From positions 434,001 to 498,000 of the forward strand of contig JABVCE010000025.1 of NCBI GenBank assembly GCA_014905635.1: 64,000 bases of DNA, given 5' to 3'. Shown here one piece after another: positions 34,295-47,755 of the stretch. This DNA is from Scenedesmus sp. PABB004. Lineage: Eukaryota. The first letter of the stretch is position 1. Every line of letters starts with the position of its first letter. Both the position numbers and the translations under genes were made by a program. Under the pieces are notes generated by a model that had not been told where the DNA came from, searched no databases, and worked only from the letters and a program-made list of their open reading frames with translations.

Positions 34295-36462
34295 CTAGCA
34301 CTCGCAGCCCGCCGCGGCGGCCGGCTGCTGCACGTTCGTGAGGAACAGCCGCGCCGCCTCCATCAGGCACTCGCGCTGCCGGCCCGGCAGCGCGTGCAGC
34401 ATGGTCAGGCTGGGCGTGTCGGGCTCCCGCAGCAGGTCCCCGATCTGCCACGTCTGCCCGCAGGGGCTGCACAGCGTGAAGCCGCCGCCGCCGCCCAGCT
34501 GGTCGGCGCCCTGCGACGCGCGCGGGCGGCCGGGAGCGGCGCACCGGGGTCGGCGCGGCAGGCGCCCGCCGCAGCGCGCGGGCCGCCAGCGCCGCGAGCC
34601 TGCGCTGCTGCCCGACGGCCCGCCGCGCGCGCGCACCTCGGGCAGCACGCTCCACATGCCGAGCTCGCCCGCCGGCAGCGACGCCGGCAGCGCGGGCAGC
34701 ATGTCGCTGCCCGGCAGGCGCGGGCTGATGCCACACGCGATCGCCTGGTTCACGTCGACCACGAGCTGCGGCGGCTGCGAGCTCAGCGAGTTGCTGCGAA
34801 CGCGCTTCAGGCTGCGCCCGCTGTCGCCGCAGTCCTCCGCGCTCGGCTGCGCGGCGCGCTTGGCGCCCTGCGCGCGCGCGCGGGGGCGGGGGCGGGGGGA
34901 GCGGCAGCGTGAGCAGGGGCGGCGCGGCGCGGGGCGCCCCCGGCCCGCCGGGCGCCCGCCGCCCCCCGCGCGCGTGTGGCACCTTGGGGACCATCGGGCT
35001 CTCCGACTGCAGCGCCGAGTCGCTGGAGCTGCTGCCCGCCTTGGCGGCGGGCGCCGTCGCGGCGCCAAGCTCCTCGCTGCTGCCCCAGATGAGCTGCGTC
35101 GACTCGTGCAGCTCCTCGCCTCCGCCGCTGAGGTCGTGCAGCAGGTGCTGGAAGTCGTCGTGCGGGTCCTCCTGCGCGCAGATCGGGCCCAGCGCGTCGC
35201 CGCCCTTGCCGCCCGCGACGTCGTCCGCGCCGTCGTCCGAGCCGTCGCTCGCGGAGGGGCTGTCGGCGTCGCCGGCGGGCGCGGCGCCGCCGTCGCTGCG
35301 GCGGTCGTCGTCGCCGGCCACGTCCTCGGAGCCGCTGTCGCACGGCCCGGGCGCGTCGTCCTCCTGCTTGAACTCCGTGAGCAGCCGCTCCAGCGAGATG
35401 TTCTTGGACAGGAACTTGCTGCGCGGGGCGGCGCGCGCGGCGCGCGCGTGTGAGCAGCCAGCCCCGCCCACGCCGCGCGCCGGCACCCCCAGCGGCCGGC
35501 GCCGCGCGCGTCGCGCAGCGCGCGCGCAAGCTCACTTGGCGCGCATGCCCGCGGTGCCGGCCTTGCGCTTGAGCGTCGAGTTCCAGCGGTTCTTGACCGC
35601 GTTGTCGGTGCGGCCCGGCAGCAGCTTGGCGATCACTGCGGCGCGGCGGCGCGCGGCGGTCAGAAGACTGGCGACACGGACGACGCCGAGCTGCCGCACG
35701 CGCTGTCCCCCCCCCCCTTCCCCCGGCCGCAGGAGCGGCGCCGCCCTCACCCGACCACTTGTTGCCGTTGAAGTCGTGCGCCTGGCAGCGGCGGCGCGGC
35801 GTGTGGCGTCGGCGCGGCGCTCGCCCTGGCGCGCCGCGGGGTGCTGCCGGGGCGACCACCGGCCGCCCGGCCCGCCGCGAGCGCGCCGCGCGCGGGCCCG
35901 CCTCCGGCGCGCTCAAACGAGCTGCCGCTCGCCGTGCGGGCCCGCGCCGCGCCCGGGGCGCACCTTGATGATCACGGCGTCCTCCCAGTCACTGAACGTG
36001 CCCTTCTTGACCTCGGGATTGAGGTGGTTCCACCACCTGCGCGCGGGCGCGGCATGCCGGGCGCGTCGGGCGCCCGCCCCGCGCCGCACGCCGCCGCCCG
36101 GTCCTGCGCGCCGCCCCGGGCCCCACCTGAGGCGGCAGCTCTTGCCGGAGCGGCCCTGCGGCGCCAGGCGGGGCGGGGTGAGGCGGGGGCGGGGCAAGAG
36201 CTGCGCTCCGGCAGCCCCCGCGCGCGTGCGCGGCCGCACCTTGATCTTCTCCGCCACGACGCTCCACTTCTGGGCGCCGTTCATCATGACCAGGCGCCGC
36301 AGCTGCTCATCCTGCGCGGCGCGCGGCGCCGGGCGGGGCCTCGGCATGCGGGCCCGCCCCCCGCGCCCGCCCGGCCCCGCGGCGCGCCGCCTGCCCAGCC
36401 CCCACCTCCTCGGGCGTCCAGGCGCCCTTTTTGAGGAAGGGCTCCTCGCTGCTGGCCGGCAT
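34295..36462 (-). CDS. R2R3-MYB transcription factor, 9 exons
   Basis: Spliced: [112 protein letters not shown], followed by an acidic low-complexity C-terminus. Confidence 0.95.
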
Positions 36463-37477: not shown

Positions 37478-40400
37478 TCAGGCCCCGCGCTCGCCGCCGC
37501 CGCCGCCGCCGCGCGCGCGCAGCTCGTGCAGCTCGGCCGCGCGCGCCACGCGCGGCGGCGGCCGGTACCGCCGCAGCAGCAGCGACGACAGCACGACGCT
37601 GACGCTGCTGAAGACCATGCACCCGCCCGCAACCCAGGGCGGCATCTGCACGTGGAAGCGCGGGTACGCGAGCCCCGCGGCGAGGGGGATCATGACCACG
37701 TTGTAGCCCATCGCCCACACAAAGTTCCACTGGATGCGGCGGAAGGTGCGGCGCGAGAGGTCGAGCCCGACCAGCACGCCCTCGAGGTCGTCGCGCATGA
37801 GCACATAGTCGGCCGCCTCGACCGCGATGTCGGTGCCGCTGCCGAGCGCAACGCCGACGTCGGCCGCCGCGAGCGCGGGCGAGTCGTTGACGCCGTCGCC
37901 GACCATCGCGACGACGCGGCCGGCGCGCTGCAGCTCGCCCACGACGCCCGCCTTGCCCGCGGGCAGCACCTCGGCCGACACGTGCGCGGGCGGGATGCAC
38001 AGCTGCTTCGCGATCGCGCGCGCGGTGCGCCAGTTGTCGCCGGTCAGCAGGTGGCACTGCACGCCCGCCGCCTGCAGCGCGCCGACCACGCCCGCGGCCT
38101 CGGGCTTGAGCGGGTCGGCCACCGCCAGCGCCGCCACGGCCGCGCCGTTGATGCCGAGCAGCACCACCGTCTGGCCCAGCGCCTCGCGGCGCTGCATGTA
38201 CTCCTCCACGCCACCCGTCAGCGCGACGCCCTGCTCCTGCATCAGCAGACGGTTGCCCAGCGCGACGCGCAGCCCCGGCGCGGCGGTGCCCTGCTGCTGC
38301 TGCTGCAGCTGCGCCACGCGGCCGTGCTCGGCCGCCGCCTTGCCCGGCGCGCCGCCGGCGGCGCCGCCCGCGGCGACGGCGAGCGAGGCCTCCGGCAGCA
38401 GCACGGTCACGCCCTTGCCGGGGTGGTTCTGCGCGGGCGGGCGGGCGGGCGGGCGGGCGGGCGGGCGGGCGGGCGGCGGGCGGGCGGGCGGGCGGGCGGG
38501 CGGGCGGACCGCTGGCGTCGGCGGCGCGCCGACGGCGGGCCAGCCGCCGCGCGCGGCTGGCGGCCGGCGCCGCGCGCCGCCTGCCCCGGGCCCCGGCCCC
38601 GCGCGGCGCGCACCTCCACGTCCGGCACCTTGAGCACGCCGCGGCTCAGCATGCCGCGCAGCCGCCGCGGCGTGCCGGCGGGCGAGGCCGGCTCCACGGC
38701 GAGGCCCTCCATGCTGCGCCGCCGCGCGAGCGCGCGCGGGCTGCCGCTGGCCCAGCACGCCGCGTCCTCGACGCCGCTGCCGCTGCTGCCGGTGCGCGCG
38801 ACCGCGCGCAGCTGCGCGCCCCGCCGCCGCTCCGCCGCCTCGGCCTCGGCAAACGCCTGCCCCAGCGCCGGCGCGCCGCCCCGGCCGCCGCTGCTGCCGG
38901 GGTCGTCTTCGAGGCTGAACGCGGCCACAAACGGCTCGGCCGCGCCTTCCGCCGCGCTGGGCGGCCGGCTGAGCACGCCCTGCGCGTACTCCAGCACCGC
39001 GCGCGCGAGCGGGTGCTCGCTCGCCGCCTCGGCCGCCGCGGCGAGCGCGCAGACCTGGCGCAGCGTGTAGCCCGGGCGCAGCAGCACCGCGTCCGTCACG
39101 CTCGGCCGCCCCAGCGTGAGCGTGCCGGTCTTGTCAAACACGACCGTGTTGACGTGGTGCGCGCGCTCCAGCGCGTCGCCGCCTGCGGCGGGGCCGGCGC
39201 GGCGACAGGCGGCGTCGGCGGCGTCCGGAGGCGGCGACGCCGCGGCGGCGCTGCCCACGCGCGGGGCAGGGCGGGGCGGGGCGGGGCGGGCCGCCTGGAA
39301 AGGAGGGGGGGGGGGGGCGGCACGGCACACGCGCCCTTGATGAGGATGCCCAGCTGCGCGCCGACGCCGGTGCCGACCATGACGGCGGTCGGCGTGGCCA
39401 GCCCCAGCGCGCAGGGGCAGGCAATGACGAGCACGCTGATGCCAAAGAGCAGCGCAAACAGAAAGTGCGTGTGCCCCAGCGGCAGCCACGAGTCCGGGAA
39501 CGCGCCCGCGCTGCCGGCGACAAACCTGGCGGCGGCGGCGCGGCGCGCGAGGCGGCGGGCGTGGCGTGGGCATGGGCGCGCGTCGTTGGGCGGCGCGCGG
39601 CGCCGCCGGGCGCGGCCCCGCGCGGGCGCGCGCGCACCAGCCGGCCCAGGTGAGCAGCGCGAGCGCGACCACGACCGGCACAAAGATGCTGGCCACGTGG
39701 TCGGCGTACGCCTGGATGGGCGCCTTGCTCATCTGCGCGCGCTGCACCAGGCGCACGATCTGGGCCAGCACCGTGTCGGCGCCCACGCGCGTCGCCTGCG
39801 CGCCGGCGGCGATGGCGGGGGTGAGCGGCGCCGCGGCCGCGTCGTCCGGGCCGCGGCGCGCGGGCCGCGGCGCCGCGCGGTGCGGCGCGGGGCGCGCGGC
39901 GCCGCGCCTGCATGATCAGAGCGTTGCCGGTGTTGATGGTGCCGCCGATGAGCGCGTCGCCCTCGCGCCGCAGCACGGGCTCGCTCTCGCCGCTGATCAT
40001 GCTCTCGTTGACGTAGCTGCTCCCCGCGACGAGCACGCCGTCGGCGGGGATGCGCCCGCCCGGCAGCACCTGCGCGGTCGGCGGCGGGTGCGGCGCGGGC
40101 GCTCGGCCGCCGCGGGCTGCCGGCGGGGGGCGCGCTGCTGCGTGCGGCGCGCGCGCGGCGCTGACGCCAGGCGCCCGCGCGGCGGGCCCCCGCGCGCCTT
40201 GAGGTGGTCGCCCTGGTGAATGAGCGCGCTGGCCACGAGCTCCTCGTCCGCCACGGCGCCGGCGGCGTCGAGCGTGACGAGCGTGGCGGTGTCGGGCGCG
40301 AGCGCGAGCAGGGCCTGGATCGCCGCGCTCGTCTTGCCCTTGGCCGCGCACTCCAGGTACTTGCCCAGGATGACCACGCTGATGAGCATCGCGCACGTCT

Positions 40401-42295
40401 CAAAAAAGTCCTGGCACGCGGCGGCGCGCGCGGCGGCGCGTCGTGGGGCGGCGCGTCGCAGGACGGCGCGCGCGAGGCGGCGCAGCGCAGGGCGGCGCGC
40501 GCCGCGCGGCGCAGCGCAGCGCAGCGCAGCGCAGCGCAGGGCTCGCCGCGGGCCGCGCGCGCCGCGCCGCACGCCAACGCACCGTGGGCGTGTAGTGCAT
40601 CGCGTCGTGGCGCACGAAGCGGTGGTGCAGGATTGAGATGAGGCTGTAGGCGTAGCTCGCGCCCGTGCCCAGCACGACGAGCACATCCATGTTGGCCACG
40701 CCGCGGCGCAGCGCCTTGAACGCGGCCCGGTGGAAGCGCCAGCCGATCCAAAACTGCACCGGCGTCGCGAGCGCCCACTTGAGCAGCTCGTCGGCGCGGA
40801 AGCCAAACACCGGCGCCGACAGCACCGCCTCGGTGCCTGGCGCGCGCGGCCGGCGCGGCCGCGGCGGGACGGCGGTCGGCGGGTGGCGCGGCGGCGGCGC
40901 TAGGCGGGGGCGGGGCCGGGGTGCAGCCGCGCGCGCGCGCGGCGCCGCCGCCGCCGCGCACCCGGCAGCATGGGCAGGACCATGGCGATGATGAACACGG
41001 GCAGCGTGAACACGAGCGCGAGCGTGAGCAGGTGGCGCCACTCGTCGAGCTCCGCGCTGTGGTCGGCCCCGCGGCCCTCGTCGGCGCCGCCGAGCAGGCG
41101 CGCCTCAAAGCCCGCGCCGTCGACCGCCGCGAGCAGCGCGCGCGGCCCCGTCGCGCCGGGCTGGAACCACACCTCGGCGCGCCCCCCGACCGCGCACACG
41201 GCCGCCGACGACACGCCGGGCAGCGCCGTCAGCGCGGCCTCGACCGCGGCCGCGCACGCGGCGCACGTCATGCCCCGCACGCCCAGCGCGGCGCGCTCGA
41301 GCCCCGCGTTGCTCAGCAGGCGCGCATCAAAGCCCAGGTCCTCCACCGCCGCGAGCAGCGCGGCCGGCGTGGTGGCCGTGGGGCAGTACGTCACCTCCGC
41401 CTCGCCGCCCGTCAGCGACACCGCCGAGCGGCTCACGCCCGGCAGCGCCGCGAGGCCGCGCTCGACCGCGCCGGAGCACGCGGCGCAGGTCATGCCGCCC
41501 ACCGCGATGCGCGCGACCTGCAAGCGCGGCGCGCCGGGCGGCGCGCGGGCGGGCGGGCGGCCCGTCAGCGCCGCGGGCGGCCGCACGCTCGGGGGCACCA
41601 CGCCGCCGCCGCCGCCGCCGCTGGCGCCGCCGCCACATGCCGCCCCAGTCGCCCGCGCGCGGCGCACCTGCGGGCGCGCCGCGGACGCGTCGCCGTCGTC
41701 GAGCTCGTGCACCGAGAGCAGCTTGCAGTCAAAGCCCGCGCCGTCCACCGCGGCGACGAGGTCGTCGCTGCACGCGACGCCGCCGTCGTACGTCACCTCC
41801 GCCGAGTGCTGCAGCAGCGCCACCGACGCCAGGCTCACGCCCGGCACCGCCCTGCGCGCGCGCGTGCGCAGGGAGGCGGCAGCGCGGCGGGCGCGGTCGG
41901 CCAGCGCCGCGCGCGGCGGCGGCGAATGCGCGGCGCGCACGCGTGCTGTTGCGGTGTGACCAGCACCCAACCCCCCCCCCCTCCCGCACCTCAGCGCCGC
42001 CTCCACGGCGGAGGAGCAAGCGGAGCAGGTCATGCCCTTGACCGACAGCTGCGGCGGTGCGGCCGGCGCGGCGTGGGCGCGTGCGCGCGGCGGGGCGTGC
42101 GCGCGGCGGGCGCCCGCTGCTGCCGCGCCCGCCGCGCCCGCCGCCGGCGCCGCGCCGCCGCACCAGCGCGACGCTGTGCAGCGAGTGGGCCTTCGACGGC
42201 GCGACGGCCGCCATCTCCGTGTCCGCCACGCGCTCGTAGGGCGTCGCGGGGCCCCGCCCCAGCCCCAGCGCCTGCCGCAGCCTCCCCAGCGCCAT
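37478..42295 (-). CDS. Copper-transporting P1B-1 type ATPase (HMA5/RAN1/ATP7-like)
   Basis: About 11 exons. Three HMA domains (GMTCSAC, GMTCAAC x2), [60 protein letters not shown]...MVFSS Cu-type TM motifs. Confidence 0.96.
38433..38506. repeat. Intronic (GGGC)n microsatellite
   Basis: Long gcgggcgggcggg... run directly upstream of an ATPase acceptor; it reads (CCCG)n in the transcript. Confidence 0.85.
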
Positions 42296-42594: not shown

Positions 42595-45500
42595 TCATGA
42601 GGCAGCGGCGCGGCCGCGGCGGCGCGACCTTCCCGCCGCCGCGCCCGGCCGGCAGCTGCCCGCCGCGCGCCCGGCGGCCCGGCTCTCGCGCCCAGCTCGC
42701 CCAGGCCTCCCGCGTCAGCTGCTGCCGCCCCCGGCGGCTCGCCGGCGGCGGCGCTCGCGGCGGCGCGGTCGGCCTCGAGCGCCGCGGCCGCGGCCTGGCG
42801 CGCCTGCTCGGCGCTGATGTCCTCCTCGACGCGCAGCCCCTCCGCCAGCAGCCGGCGGCGCTCCTCGTCGGCCGCGTGCGCGGCCGCGCGGCGCGCAAAG
42901 CCCTCCTCGAGCGCCGGCCAGTCGGCCCACGCGGCCGGCGGCGCGCCCGCGGCGCCGCCGCCGCGCGGCGGCCGCGCGCCGCCGGCCGCGCCGAGGCCCT
43001 CGAGCGCCATGAGCGTCGCCGCGGGCACGGCGTTGAGCCGCGCGGCGAGCGTCTTGAACGCGCTCGACTGCGGGAGCAGCATGAGCAGGCCGTACAGCGC
43101 GCGCAGCAGGTCGGGGTGCGCCGACGGCGCGAGCAGCTGCAGGCGCAGGAAGGCGTACGCCGGCGTCTCCAGCAGCTGCACGAGCCGGTCCACCTGCACC
43201 AGCACCTCCGCGCCCAGCGGCAGCGTCGCGAGCCGCGCGATGAGCGCCGCGGCGTGGCCGTACGCCTGCGCGAGCAGGCACAGCGACAGCAGCGCGCCTG
43301 CGCGCCGCGCCGCGCCCGCGGCGGCGGCGCCGGCGTCAGGGGCCGCGGCGAGGGGGCGCCGCGCCCGGGGGCGGCAGCGGCAGCGGCAGCGGCGGCGGCG
43401 GCGTGGCCGCGCGGCACACGGACGCACCCGCGCTGTGGCTCCAGCAGCTGTAGAGCGCCGCAAAGTGCGACGCGCCGTGTGGGCTGGCCGCGGCGTCGCG
43501 CAGCGCGTCGCGCAGCACGCGGACCTCGCCCGCGGTCAGCAGGATGAGGTTCAGCGCCTGGGCCCAGTGGGGGGGAGGGGCGTGCGGGGGAGGTGCGGAG
43601 GGGCCGTGTTGGCGGGCGGGCCGGCGGGGAGCGCGCGGGCCGGGCGCCGGCGAGCGCCGCGCAGGTGCTGTTCAGCTACGTGCGCCGGCGCCGCCGCACC
43701 TGCACCATCGTGCTCGCAAAGCACAGGTCCGGCTCGTCGTCCAGGATCGTCGCAAACTCCCGGAACACCACGGCCGGGCCCATCGCGGCGCAGAGGCGGC
43801 GGATGACGAGCGGGCCGCCCTTCTGCAGCAGCACCAGCCCCGCGTCGCCACGGAACCTGCAGCGGCGCGGCGGCGGCCGCGGCTCGGCGCGGGCGCGGGC
43901 GCGCGGGCGGCGGCGGCGGCTCGCGGCGGCGCGCGCGCGCGTCGGCGCCCCGCGCGCGCGTCGGTGCCGCGCGCCTGTCCAGCAGGCTCTTGAGCACGCG
44001 GCGGAAGTGCTGTGCGTGGCCGGCGATGCTGCCGAGCACGCTGAGCGCCTGCAGCACGACGCGCTCGCTGTCGCTGCCGAGCGCGTCGAGCAGCGCCGCG
44101 AGCAGCGCGTCGAGCTGGCCGAAGACCTCGTCCTCGTTGCGCACGAGCAGGAAGTGCACCCAGCGCAGCGCCTCGAGCCGCGTCGGCTCCTGCTCGCTGC
44201 GCAGCTCGCGCGAGATGATGGCGAGCACGGGCGGGACCTCGACCTTGACCGGCAGCTCCGCGACGGGCTGGAGGTTGAGCAGCGCCGCGTTGGCCTCCTT
44301 GGACACCTGGCAGAGGGCGCGCGGCGCAGGGCGGGTGCGGCGCGGGCGGCGCGTGTGAGGAGGGGCGGAGCCGCCGCGGCGTGGCGCCGCGCCGCGCCGC
44401 GCCGCGCCGCGCAGCGCAGCGCGCCGTGTGCGGGTGCGCCGCGAGTCGCGTCGCGCCTGCTGTATGTCGCGGTTGGGGTGGCTGATGTTGGGCAGCACCG
44501 CGCCGAGCAGGTCGGCGTACACGCCCACCAGCTGCCCGCTCGCCTGCTCCACAAACTCCTGCGGCAGCGGCGGCGGCGCGGCGGCGCGGCGCGGCGCGGT
44601 GGGCGCGTGGGCGCGCGCGCGGCCGTGCGGGCGCGGGCGCTGTCTGCCCGCCGCCTTGAACAAGACCGCGTGCCGGCGGGTCTCGCCTTGATCCACTTGA
44701 TCGCGGTAATGCGCGTGAACTCGTCCGCGCTGGAGGCCTTGTCCACCAGGATGGTCGCGAGGGCGACCCAGTCCACGCTCGGCGTCGCCTGCGCGCGGCG
44801 GCGGCGTGGTGCCGGCGCGCAGCGGGGGCGTGCGCAGCGGGGGCGCGCGCGCAGGCCCGCACACACACGCACACGCACGCACACACGGGCCGCGCCTGTA
44901 TCTCAACGAGGAACTCCATGAGGCACTTGTGCGCGGCGACGCGGATCTCGCGGTTTGGGTCGCTCAGCAGGTTGAGCAGGCCGTCGAGCAGCGCCGGCAG
45001 GTGCGCGAGCATGTCGAGGTCGGGCACGCTGTCCAGCACGCACACCTGCGGGTGATCCGCGCGCGCGCGCGCGCGCGCGCGGGCGCCGGCGGCGGCGGCG
45101 GGTCGGCGGCCCGCGCGCCGCCCGCCAGGCAGCGACGCCCGCCCCGTCCCGCCGAGCCTCCCCCCGCGGGGCGGCCGCGCAGCCGATCGCCGCGCAGCGC
45201 GCCGCCCACCCATGAGATGAGGAACTGGCGCTTGTAGGGGTTTGTCACGCGCAGGTAGTCGCGCAGGCGGGGGATGAAGCCCTCCACCGAAAAGTGGGGC
45301 GACGCCGTCACGATGTCCTGCCGGGGCGGGGCCGGGCCGCCACGCGGCGCGGCGGCGCGGGCGCAGGCGTGGGCCGGGCGCCGCGCCGCCGCGCGGCCGT
45401 GCGTGCGAGGCGCGCCCCCGCGCAGCGCGACGCGCGGCACGCAGCGCGGCGCGCCGGCGCTGGCGCGCCTTGACCAGGTTGTCCAGGAACTGCACCGCGT

Positions 45501-46217
45501 TCTGCACGTTGGTCTCGCTGTCGGCGCAGAGGCGGAACATCGCGTCAAAGACCTCGCTGAAAAACACGATAAACCCCTCGCGCGACACCTGGGCCAGCCG
45601 GCGCGGCAGCAGGGGCGGCGGGCTCGCGCGCGGCCCGCTGGCTCACGCCGCTGGCACGCCACGCGCTGCCCCGCTGCCGCGCCGCGCACGCGTGCCCCGC
45701 TGCCGCGCGGCGCCGCCCGCCCCGCTCTGCGGCCAGGTGCGGGCGCGGTGCCGCGCCTTTGCGATGTTGTAGAGCGCCTCGCACGCGTAGTAGCGCACGC
45801 GGCTGTCCTGGTCAGTGAAGCTCGCGAGCACGGGCGGCACGATCTGGCGCAGGTTGGCCTCGCTCGGCTCGCCCAGGCCCACCGTCGCCGCGGCGAGGCA
45901 CAGCAGCGCGCCCTGCGCGGCCGCGGCGCGCGGTGGGCGGTCGTGCGAGCGGCCGACGGGCGCGCGGCGCCGGCGCGCGCCCCGGCGGCGCAGCGCGGGG
46001 GCGCGGCGCGCGCCTTGCGGTGGTTGGCCTGCGGCGAGAAGGCGTACTCGGCGATGAGCTTGTCGATGATGGCCGACACCTTGCCCGCGTCGCCCGCGGC
46101 CGCGAGGCGCTTCACGATCTGCTCCACCTCCAGCGCCGCGGCCTTGCGCTTCTCATACAGCTTGTCCCCGATCTGCCGCAGCACCGCCTGCGGCAGCAGC
46201 TCCTCCACCGCCACCAT
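42595..46217 (-). CDS. VAC14: VAC14 (PIKfyve/Fab1 complex scaffold)
   Basis: At least 11 exons. LRQIGDKLYEKRKAAALEVE, ANHRKGALLCLAA, DQDSRVRYYACEALYNIAK, LDNLVKDIVT, RQFLISW, ALYSCWSHS, QVDRLVQLLETPAYAFLRLQLL, LLRALYGLLMLLPQSSAF. The 3' end is uncertain (a possible further intron). Confidence 0.93.
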
Positions 46218-46699: not shown

Positions 46700-46876
46700 G
46701 GGTTTAAGGCATCGGCCTGCGCCGCGCTGCTCGCGGGGGCCACCCCCGCGCCCGCGCACCGCCTCTCCCCTTTCCGCGGAGGCCCCGCCGGTTCCTGAGA
46801 GGTGCGGGCGCGCTCCGGGGCCGGCGCAGCGCGGCGCGCCGGCCGCCGGCGCGAGCGCCCCCGGGCCGCGCCGCAG
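46700..46876 (+). promoter_or_regulatory. RPL23 promoter / 5'-TOP-like pyrimidine tract and 5'UTR intron
   Basis: TTTAAG at ~46703, CCTCTCCCCTTTCC at ~46762-46775, and a GT(46802)...AG(46876) intron just upstream of the ATG, as is typical of ribosomal protein genes. Confidence 0.5.
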
Positions 46877-46885
46877 GTCGCCACC

Positions 46886-47755
46886 ATGAGCAAACGGGGG
46901 CGCGGCGGCACGTCCGGCAACAAGTTCTCCATGTCCCTGGGTCTGCCCGTGGCCGCGGTGATGAACTGCGCCGACAACACGGGCGCCAAGAACCTGTACA
47001 TTATCAGCGTCTGCGGCTGGGGCAGCAGGCTCAACCGCCTGCCCGCCGGCGGCCCGGGCGACATGGTGATGGCCACGGTCAAGAAGGGCAAGCCCGACCT
47101 GCGCAAGAAGGGTGCGCGCCGCCGGGCGCGGGGGATCTCCGCGCCGGCCGCCGCGCCGCCGCCGGCGCGCACGGGGCACGCGCGGGCCCCGCGGCGCGCG
47201 CGGCGCACGGGCACGGCTTCGGGGCGGCCGTGGGCCGCCGTACAGCCGCGGGGGCGGCCCGCGCCGCCGCCGCGCGGCCGCCGCGCGACGCCGCTGCTGC
47301 CGCGGCCGCCGCCGCGCCGCAGTGACCCCCGCGGTCATCGTGCGCCAGCGCAAGCCCTGGAGGAGGAAGGAGGGCACCTACATCTACTTCGAGGACAACG
47401 CGGGCGTCATCGTCAACCCCAAGGGCGAGATGAAGGGTGCGCAGTGGCGGCGGCGGCGGCGGCAGCGGCGGCGACGGGGGTGGCGACGGGGGCGGCAGTG
47501 GCGGCGGCGAAAACGGTGGTGGCAGTGGCAGTGGCAGCAGCGGCAGCAATTGCGGCAGCGGCAGCGCCAGCAGCGGTCAGCGCGGCCGCGGCGTCGTGGC
47601 CAGCAGCGCTGCGCGCGCGCCGGCTGCGCTCGCCTCACCCCCCCCCCCCCTCGCCCGCGCGTGCCACGCCAGGCTCTGCCATCACCGGCCCGGTGGCCAA
47701 GGAGTGCGCCGACCTGTGGCCGCGCATTGCCAGCGCCGCCAACAGCATCGTGTAG
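46886..47755 (+). CDS. RPL23: 60S ribosomal protein L23 (uL14)
   Basis: Exons 46886-47111, 47323-47436, 47673-47755. [38 protein letters not shown]...[42 protein letters not shown] at 47973-47977. Confidence 0.98.

Follow-up and report, generated by a model that had tools for sequence, protein, structure and literature searches.

The VAC14 gene and its introns

The stretch of the Scenedesmus sp. PABB004 assembly analysed here (GCA_014905635.1, contig JABVCE010000025.1, positions 434,001 to 498,000; 64,000 nucleotides, hereafter the window) has a GC content of 75-82% and carries on its minus strand a VAC14 gene, seven of whose ten introns begin with the dinucleotide GC (Table 1). The gene was identified by the Pfam domains Vac14_Fab1_bd (PF12755, E 3e-18) and, C-terminally, Vac14_Fig4_bd (PF11916, E 1e-33) together with HEAT repeats, all matched within single exons, and by full-length similarity to its orthologues, the spliced product being identical in 592 of 724 columns (82%) to the nearest named full-length homologue, P0003 from Tetradesmus obliquus. 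VAC14 itself is an ordinary housekeeping gene and unremarkable.

A preliminary description of the window had placed seven GC-AG introns in VAC14, each in an AG/GCG context (here and below the slash marks the exon-intron boundary), and its coordinates prove exact. Each of the seven starts with GCG after AAG or CAG, ends in CAG and shows AG/G at both ends, the other three introns of the gene have GT donors, and removal of the seven restores the conserved frame in every case. At all ten junctions the product aligns to P0003 without a gap within 14 residues, and the flanking peptides agree with the 15 orthologues compared. In protein-to-genome alignment with VAC14 orthologues, a purpose-written spliced aligner that demands AG at the 3' end of an intron but permits any donor dinucleotide returned the same ten introns with a score of 2672, whereas a run restricted to GT donors scored 263 lower (2409), missed two introns and misplaced five. 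All ten introns were also recovered by an ab initio model with donor matrices built from GT sites alone and a GC prior of 1%.

Alignment speaks against nearby GT sites as the true donors. In an exhaustive local search for in-frame, stop-free GT-AG alternatives, scored by mean BLOSUM over five orthologues, the GC junction was superior in all seven cases, by 73, 43, 21, 7, 35, 79 and 47 in the order of the introns; at the narrowest margin, that of intron 5 (206.6 vs 199.8), the GC donor was also picked by the any-donor aligner and by the ab initio model. Retention of intron 2 introduces a stop codon, use of a GT 6 nt upstream of the intron 3 donor would remove a conserved VK, and there is no GT in the 40 nt to either side of the intron 7 donor. 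The conservation of the protein confirms the seven as genuine GC-AG introns and would imply their use in RNA. An artefact, whether from systematic miscalling of T as C in the consensus behind AG or from true donors at nearby GT sites, is very improbable. The GT alternative to intron 5 falls just 7 score units short, but GT alternatives disrupt conserved sequence, and the share of GC donors tracks the bases at -3, +3 and +4 and the class of gene, as described below. Moreover, Val is the aligned residue for 9 of 78 exonic GCG codons that follow AG vs 79 of 522 other GCG codons (columns with Ala or Val; p=0.49), a test by which T>C assembly error was rejected.

Table 1. VAC14, its introns and neighbouring features of the window (positions within the 64,000-nucleotide stretch)
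Feature	Position	Strand	Description
VAC14 gene	42717..46217	-	ATG at 46217; 11 coding exons; 10 introns (7 GC-AG, 3 GT-AG)
VAC14 intron 1, GC-AG	45913..46013	-	AAG/GCGCGC, phase 0, after residue 68
VAC14 intron 2, GC-AG	45589..45756	-	AAG/GCGCGG, phase 0, after residue 120
VAC14 intron 3, GC-AG	45318..45468	-	AAG/GCGCGC, phase 0, after residue 160
VAC14 intron 4, GT-AG	45046..45209	-	TGG/GTGGGC, phase 0
VAC14 intron 5, GC-AG	44789..44895	-	CAG/GCGCGG, phase 0, after residue 246
VAC14 intron 6, GC-AG	44559..44686	-	AAG/GCGAGA, phase 0, after residue 280
VAC14 intron 7, GC-AG	44307..44456	-	CAG/GCGCGA, phase 0, after residue 314
VAC14 intron 8, GC-AG	43857..43974	-	CAG/GCGCGC, phase 2, codon 425
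VAC14 intron 9, GT-AG	43558..43699	-	CAG/GTGCGG, phase 0; sole AG-ending exon of the gene keeping GT
VAC14 intron 10, GT-AG	43298..43427	-	CGG/GTGCGT, phase 1
Presumed Myb-like gene	34295-36462		GC donors at 0 of 6 AG ends
Predicted 1143-aa protein	37478-42295	-	GMTCSAC motif; GC at 3 of 10 predicted introns
uL14/RPL23 (PF00238)	46886-47755	+	Both coding introns AGG/GT
Probable 5' untranslated region intron of uL14/RPL23	46802-46876	+	GAG/GT...CAG, read by eye

At the 3' end of VAC14 the frame stays open to 42033 on the minus strand, entering the next gene, and the nearest downstream TGA (42717) is out of frame. Homologues stop and codon bias collapses near 42740-42710. The open frame may stem from an error of one base in the consensus or from a final intron that escaped recognition.

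GC donors across the genome

The assembly comprises 39.97 Mb in 80 contigs and has about 79% GC in the stretches read (0.75-0.80 in 21 of 21 regions). Of eleven dynein heavy-chain genes identified, eight were aligned with two homologues each; D17b, D23 and D1b, with the lowest tblastn scores to homologues, were left out. The first reference called 512 introns in the eight genes, 334 of which pass a relaxed filter (GT and GC donors only) and 213 a strict one (agreement of both references, any-donor mode, clean flanks). The strict junctions divide into 157 GT, 55 GC and one CC donor (GC 26%, 95% interval 20-32%) with no GA donor among the 213, and the relaxed set holds 95 GC donors in 334. For distant HSP70 and LHC paralogues the alignments were too poor to assign junctions.

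A two-strand ab initio gene model, in which GC, GA and GG compete with equal low priors and identical matrices, was applied to 20 arbitrarily chosen 20-kb stretches (400 kb) and the window. It called 944 introns, comprising 704 GT, 179 AG/GC, 38 other GC, 20 GA and 3 GG donors; after exonic AG the decoys GA and GG were called twice each, and AG/GC donors were present in all 21 regions. Held-out dynein junctions were exact in 102 of 103 cases, a figure that will be lower elsewhere because the held-out genes resemble the training genes. The resulting share of 19% is a floor and 23% the upper ab initio figure, because the class of GC donors without exonic AG is inflated by false calls (for example, one in HSP70A) and part of its 38 members are noise; with free matrices this class rises to 111-139. 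A first decoy control, in which the decoy dinucleotide replaced GC, was uninformative, since the decoy grew to 19-24% by absorbing real GC introns and held-out GC introns were recovered in 0 of 30 cases; the joint model replaced it.

As far as genomic sequence can tell, GC donors are a genome-wide trait of about one intron in five, amounting to about 19-23% in the ab initio genome sample and 26-28% in the dyneins, well above 10% in a GC-rich genome with canonical acceptors. GC-AG introns make up about 1% in human and on average 1.2% over 121 plants (PMC6310983). The preliminary description had called VAC14 extreme against about 1%; the gene does stand far above that value, but the baseline is wrong for this genome, where GC donors run at ~19-28%. 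Its interpretation is thus partly supported, the actual finding sitting at the level of the genome and not in VAC14.

Sequence context and the position of VAC14

The distribution of GC donors follows the surrounding sequence closely. Exonic AG precedes 54 of the 55 strict dynein GC donors, and the 95 relaxed ones have A at -2 in 94%, G at -1 in 98% and G at +5 in 99%. Among 636 exons ending in AG, GC donors are favored by C or A at -3 (248/537 vs 20/99 otherwise), A at +3 (25/31 vs 243/605), A or C at +4 (252/531 vs 16/105) and G at +5 (257/592 vs 11/44), while T at +6 is not enriched at them (p=0.41). Taken together, GC is found in 228 of 412 donors in the context MAG/GYRMG vs 40 of 224 at other AG ends. 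The positions around GC donors are therefore nearer the consensus than those of GT introns when judged against this genome's own consensus, but not against GTAAGT. At one position shared by the dynein loci L027, L036, L039 and L033 the exon ends in ATG and the donor is GC in two and GT in two; a few GC donors therefore lack exonic AG.

VAC14 presumably owes its seven GC donors to the fact that eight of its ten exon ends sit in permissive context, all eight AG ends matching MAG/GYRMG. The ratio of 7/8 has p=0.009 at the 40% rate of AG ends and p=0.066 at the context-matched rate of 55%, and 83 genes show no overdispersion of GC donors (chi2 81 on 82 df, p=0.51). Of the 21 predicted genes that have six or more AG ends, VAC14 shows the highest GC share, and two others reach 6/8. 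VAC14 is the upper tail of a genome-wide trait and not a gene-specific case.

These distributions also bear on the proposal that selection favors GC donors as weak sites through which alternative splicing or intron retention is regulated, be it in VAC14 alone or throughout the genome. Elsewhere, alternatively spliced genes are enriched in GC donors (PMC2490688), and VAC14 stands out from the rest of the window, where GC is found at 10 of 50 predicted AG-ending exons, about half the genome rate. However, the absence of overdispersion rejects VAC14-specific regulation, relatives have GT at the orthologous introns of VAC14, and first introns have fewer, not more, GC donors (16/62 vs 163/386, p=0.017), which makes the proposal as a whole quite improbable.

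Three other genes of the window were noted. The gene we label Myb-like has GC at none of its AG ends, and the GMTCSAC protein, which we take to be a heavy-metal P-type ATPase, has GC donors in part of its introns (Table 1). The uL14/RPL23 gene lies head-to-head with VAC14 at a distance of 670 bp.

Splicing machinery and intron signals

The major small nuclear RNAs (snRNAs) U1, U2, U4, U5 and U6 were all found. U1 is present in two copies of identical sequence, both of which begin with the standard 5' end AUACUUACCUG, and the U6 ACAGAGA box, U5 loop 1 and the U2 branch-recognition sequence GUAGUA are standard as well. No variant U1 was detected by Rfam, DNA and degenerate-pattern searches of the assembly, which may be incomplete; an explanation by variant U1, of the type proposed for Eurytemora, was rejected on the finding of only the two canonical copies. 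Watson-Crick pairs with U1 number 4-5 for the seven VAC14 GC donors, compared with 4-6 for the three GT donors. All the U1, U2, U4 and U5 genes lie together on one contig (G000:C46; L001, L002, L005, L176, L177), with the U1 copies inverted about 5.5 kb apart, two inverted U2 copies about 45 kb apart, and U4 and U5 adjacent.

U12-type introns are marked by the donor RTATCCTT and the branch site TCCTTAAC. The VAC14 donors read GCGCG or GCGAG, by which U12-type identity was rejected (U11 and U12 were not searched for), and the introns would belong to the U2-type GC-AG class. Genome-wide, acceptors are nearly all CAG and mostly GCAG, T stands at about 7% throughout with no T-rich tract, and the last 20 nt are poor in A; CTRAY occurs in just 289 of 1824 introns, with a peak 25-55 nt upstream. 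Introns have about 86% GC and a median length of about 120 nt. Position +4 of the donor is mostly C (GYGCG) and not A, yet the genome has a gene for a METTL16-like methyltransferase (PF05971) at G000:C21:378061-379114.

History of the introns

A metagenome scan yielded 80 VAC14 loci, of which six green-algal-like ones were mapped to a common numbering, many others being intron-poor or distant. The positions of introns 1 and 2 (residues 68 and 120) carry AAG/GT in locus L111; those of introns 3 (residue 160) and 7 (residue 314) carry AAG/GT and CAG/GT, respectively, in L046, L088, L095 and L118; and that of intron 8 (codon 425) reads GCG/GT in L095 and CCG/GT in L118. Introns 5 and 6 (residues 246 and 280) have no counterpart in the six mapped loci, and the GT introns 9 and 10 are GT at the same positions in L047 and L111. 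Because other green algae have GT introns at five of the seven positions, we infer that these five are probably old GT introns converted to GC in place. Shared intron positions in dynein paralogues likewise switch between GT and GC.

The shared positions argue against GC introns as recent insertions of introner-type transposons that co-opt AG/G targets, as in pelagophytes, where introners use both GT and GC donors (10.1101/2021.10.25.465678). All seven VAC14 introns do have AG/G at both ends, but five of the positions are common to distant green algae, and in 864 kb of the organism's own DNA the VAC14 introns give low-complexity matches only, with full-length matches at most about 72% identical. 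Among 344 introns there are 26 intron-intron matches, those printed being 71-79% identical and mixing GT and GC, and no terminal inverted repeat is apparent (10.99 vs 10.98 matches in mixed pairs). With shared positions and no near-identical copies, an introner origin is largely refuted for the DNA read, outside which lies about 97% of the genome, and we regard it as scarcely credible.

Substitution pressure, selection and the spliceosome

The reading that we prefer, with a probability of roughly two in three, is that GC-ward substitution is balanced by weak selection for the base pair between U1 and the +2 position. At U2-type introns, the +2 base would have changed from T to C in place under a very strong pressure toward G+C, presumably mutation bias, GC-biased gene conversion or both. 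A C at +2 would lose one U1 base pair, and this loss would be tolerated at strong sites (C/A at -3, A at -2, G at -1, R at +3, C/A at +4, G at +5), about half of which would have drifted to GC, while +2 C would be mostly purged at non-AG exon ends and in genes for which high expression is expected. The proportion of GC donors would then mark an equilibrium between mutation and selection, reached without any change in the snRNAs. GC content has been proposed as the same cause in Emiliania huxleyi (PMC4028052) and in pelagophytes (10.1101/2024.10.30.620910), and neutral fixation in strong contexts has been proposed for mammals (PMC2490688).

Intron bodies have a C:T ratio of 6.2, at which a neutral +2 position would be about 86% C; the observed values are 55% in the best context, 18% at other AG ends and about 4-8% at non-AG ends. 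Calculated by hand as ln(6.2 / GC:GT odds), the scaled cost of a GC donor rises from about 1.6 in the best context to 3.3 at other AG ends and about 5 at non-AG ends, with 3.4 for presumed high-expression genes, which amounts to weak and graded selection.

HSP70, LHC and tubulin genes are presumed to be highly expressed. In 14 such genes GC is found at 9 of 60 AG ends vs 179 of 448 (p=1e-4), and in the best context at 8 of 47 vs 147 of 285 (p=7e-6); the 13 anchored introns of two cytosolic HSP70 genes are all GT. Such a deficit, like that in first introns, is expected under the balance. In another HSP70 paralogue (L043, G000:C10:728001-738000) the first three AG-ending junctions are GC and the next nine GT.

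Several observations weigh against a balance of substitution and selection. The genes of the high-expression set were chosen by their names, some of them (L126, L128) being near-identical paralogues, and a codon-bias proxy over 155 predicted genes, mostly below the high-expression range, points slightly the opposite way, with GC donors in higher-index genes (p=0.004). Local intron GC predicts the donor weakly (p=0.07), and exonic look-alikes of GC donors are not measurably depleted (87:33 vs 340:140, p=0.82). As many as 123 exonic and 41 intronic copies of MAG/GCRMG are unused, and the motif alone therefore does not define a site. Lastly, five relatives' VAC14 loci, with intron C/T ratios of 0.57-1.44, have GC at 0 of 29 AG ends, whereas equal selection at those ratios would predict about 2.8 (hand calculation, P about 0.06); a lineage-specific relaxation is therefore conceivable.

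Such a relaxation would be a spliceosome adapted at the protein level, which reads C at +2 nearly like U and leans on exonic AG and intron definition; the variants would still arise from GC pressure, but tolerance itself would have changed. Candidate proteins for such a change are U1-C, Luc7, Prp8 and SNRNP27K. The shortfall in relatives is consistent with this proposal, as are the pairing of GC donors with U1 by just 4-5 Watson-Crick pairs, an intron side that reads GCGCG and not GCAAGT, acceptors without a T-rich tract and the many unused look-alike sites. However, every snRNA recognition element examined is canonical, GT remains more frequent than neutral composition predicts whatever the context, with a strong excess in presumed high-expression genes, and composition alone explains most of the rise. 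We therefore consider an adapted spliceosome unlikely, if worth keeping in mind. Equally tentative is a broader proposal that joins the highest GC share yet recorded in the green lineage (a fifth to a quarter of introns, and more than half in the best context) to a spliceosome that would tolerate +2 C at the protein level with unchanged snRNAs, reading exonic AG and composition in place of a polypyrimidine tract or strong branch motif.

The useful result is a genome-wide rule that links GC donors to context, presumed expression and conversion in place with standard snRNAs. High genomic GC is often stated to cause GC donors, and this has been little tested. A weak correlation between genome GC and splice-site GC has been reported (PMC7072748). 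The present genome offers a quantitative test, since the most conserved position of the intron is either T or C at thousands of sites, graded by context and, apparently, expression. With relatives available that have 50-72% GC, what the U1-+2 pair costs in selective terms could be measured in nature. In practice, gene finders and aligners confined to GT will misplace about one intron in five here, which puts at risk most multi-exon models of this genome and perhaps those of other GC-rich Sphaeropleales.

Comparison with known systems

The introns share with the U2-type GC-AG class the GC at +1/+2, the AG acceptor, stronger surroundings and GT>GC conversion at old introns (PMC2490688), and compensatory signals at human GC sites have been described (PMC3167603). 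They differ from that class in being about 20-fold commoner and in their context, MAG/GCGCG with C at +4 and T at +6 rare, in contrast to the near-perfect U1 complement of the class. Eurytemora affinis also departs genome-wide at +2, but with GA-AG donors, for which a variant U1 was proposed (PMC7072748), and none was found here.

Among GC-rich genomes, Emiliania (Gephyrocapsa) huxleyi has 56-65% GC donors, some verified by reverse-transcription PCR (PMC4028052), or about 55% (PMC7779022). It is likewise a GC-rich alga with a canonical AG acceptor, in which the donors were attributed to genome GC and GT-only gene finders were misled. However, it is a haptophyte with 65% GC, a majority of GC donors and some GA donors, whereas the present chlorophyte has about 79% GC and a minority of GC donors (19-28%), mostly at AG ends. 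The pelagophytes Aureococcus and Pelagomonas have a similar share of 14-17% GC-AG, attributed to high GC, with 0.32% in a low-GC relative (10.1101/2024.10.30.620910); they are intron-poor and carry introner elements, in contrast to the intron-rich genome described here with its old, non-repetitive introns.

Within the same phylum, raised GC-AG annotation points in the same direction at 6-8.5% vs 19-28% here. In the 121-plant table, 'major non-canonical' introns (GC-AG plus AT-AC) are highest in Ostreococcus tauri (173/2044, 8.5%), with 8057/114347 (7.0%) in Micractinium conductrix and 7090/124435 (5.7%) in Chlorella sorokiniana (PMC6310983 supplementary file 8). The sole member of the Sphaeropleales in that table, Monoraphidium neglectum, has 19 of 67,746 introns so annotated, and low validation of its sites of this class was reported (PMC6310983). 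The literature searched, which did not cover subscription journals, contained no account of GC donors at a high rate in Sphaeropleales; in their excerpts the genome papers PMC5966456 and PMC12571836 do not mention donors, and those of PMC10639083, PMC13298755, PMC10487979 and 10.1101/283549 hold nothing on donors in the order. Our results add the Chlorophyceae to the lineages with abundant GC-AG splicing, at a share about threefold the maximum of the 121-genome plant table. Thus, the genome of Scenedesmus sp. PABB004 joins the GC-rich genomes already known for an abundance of GC donors, and its share is apparently the highest among the green plants and algae compared.

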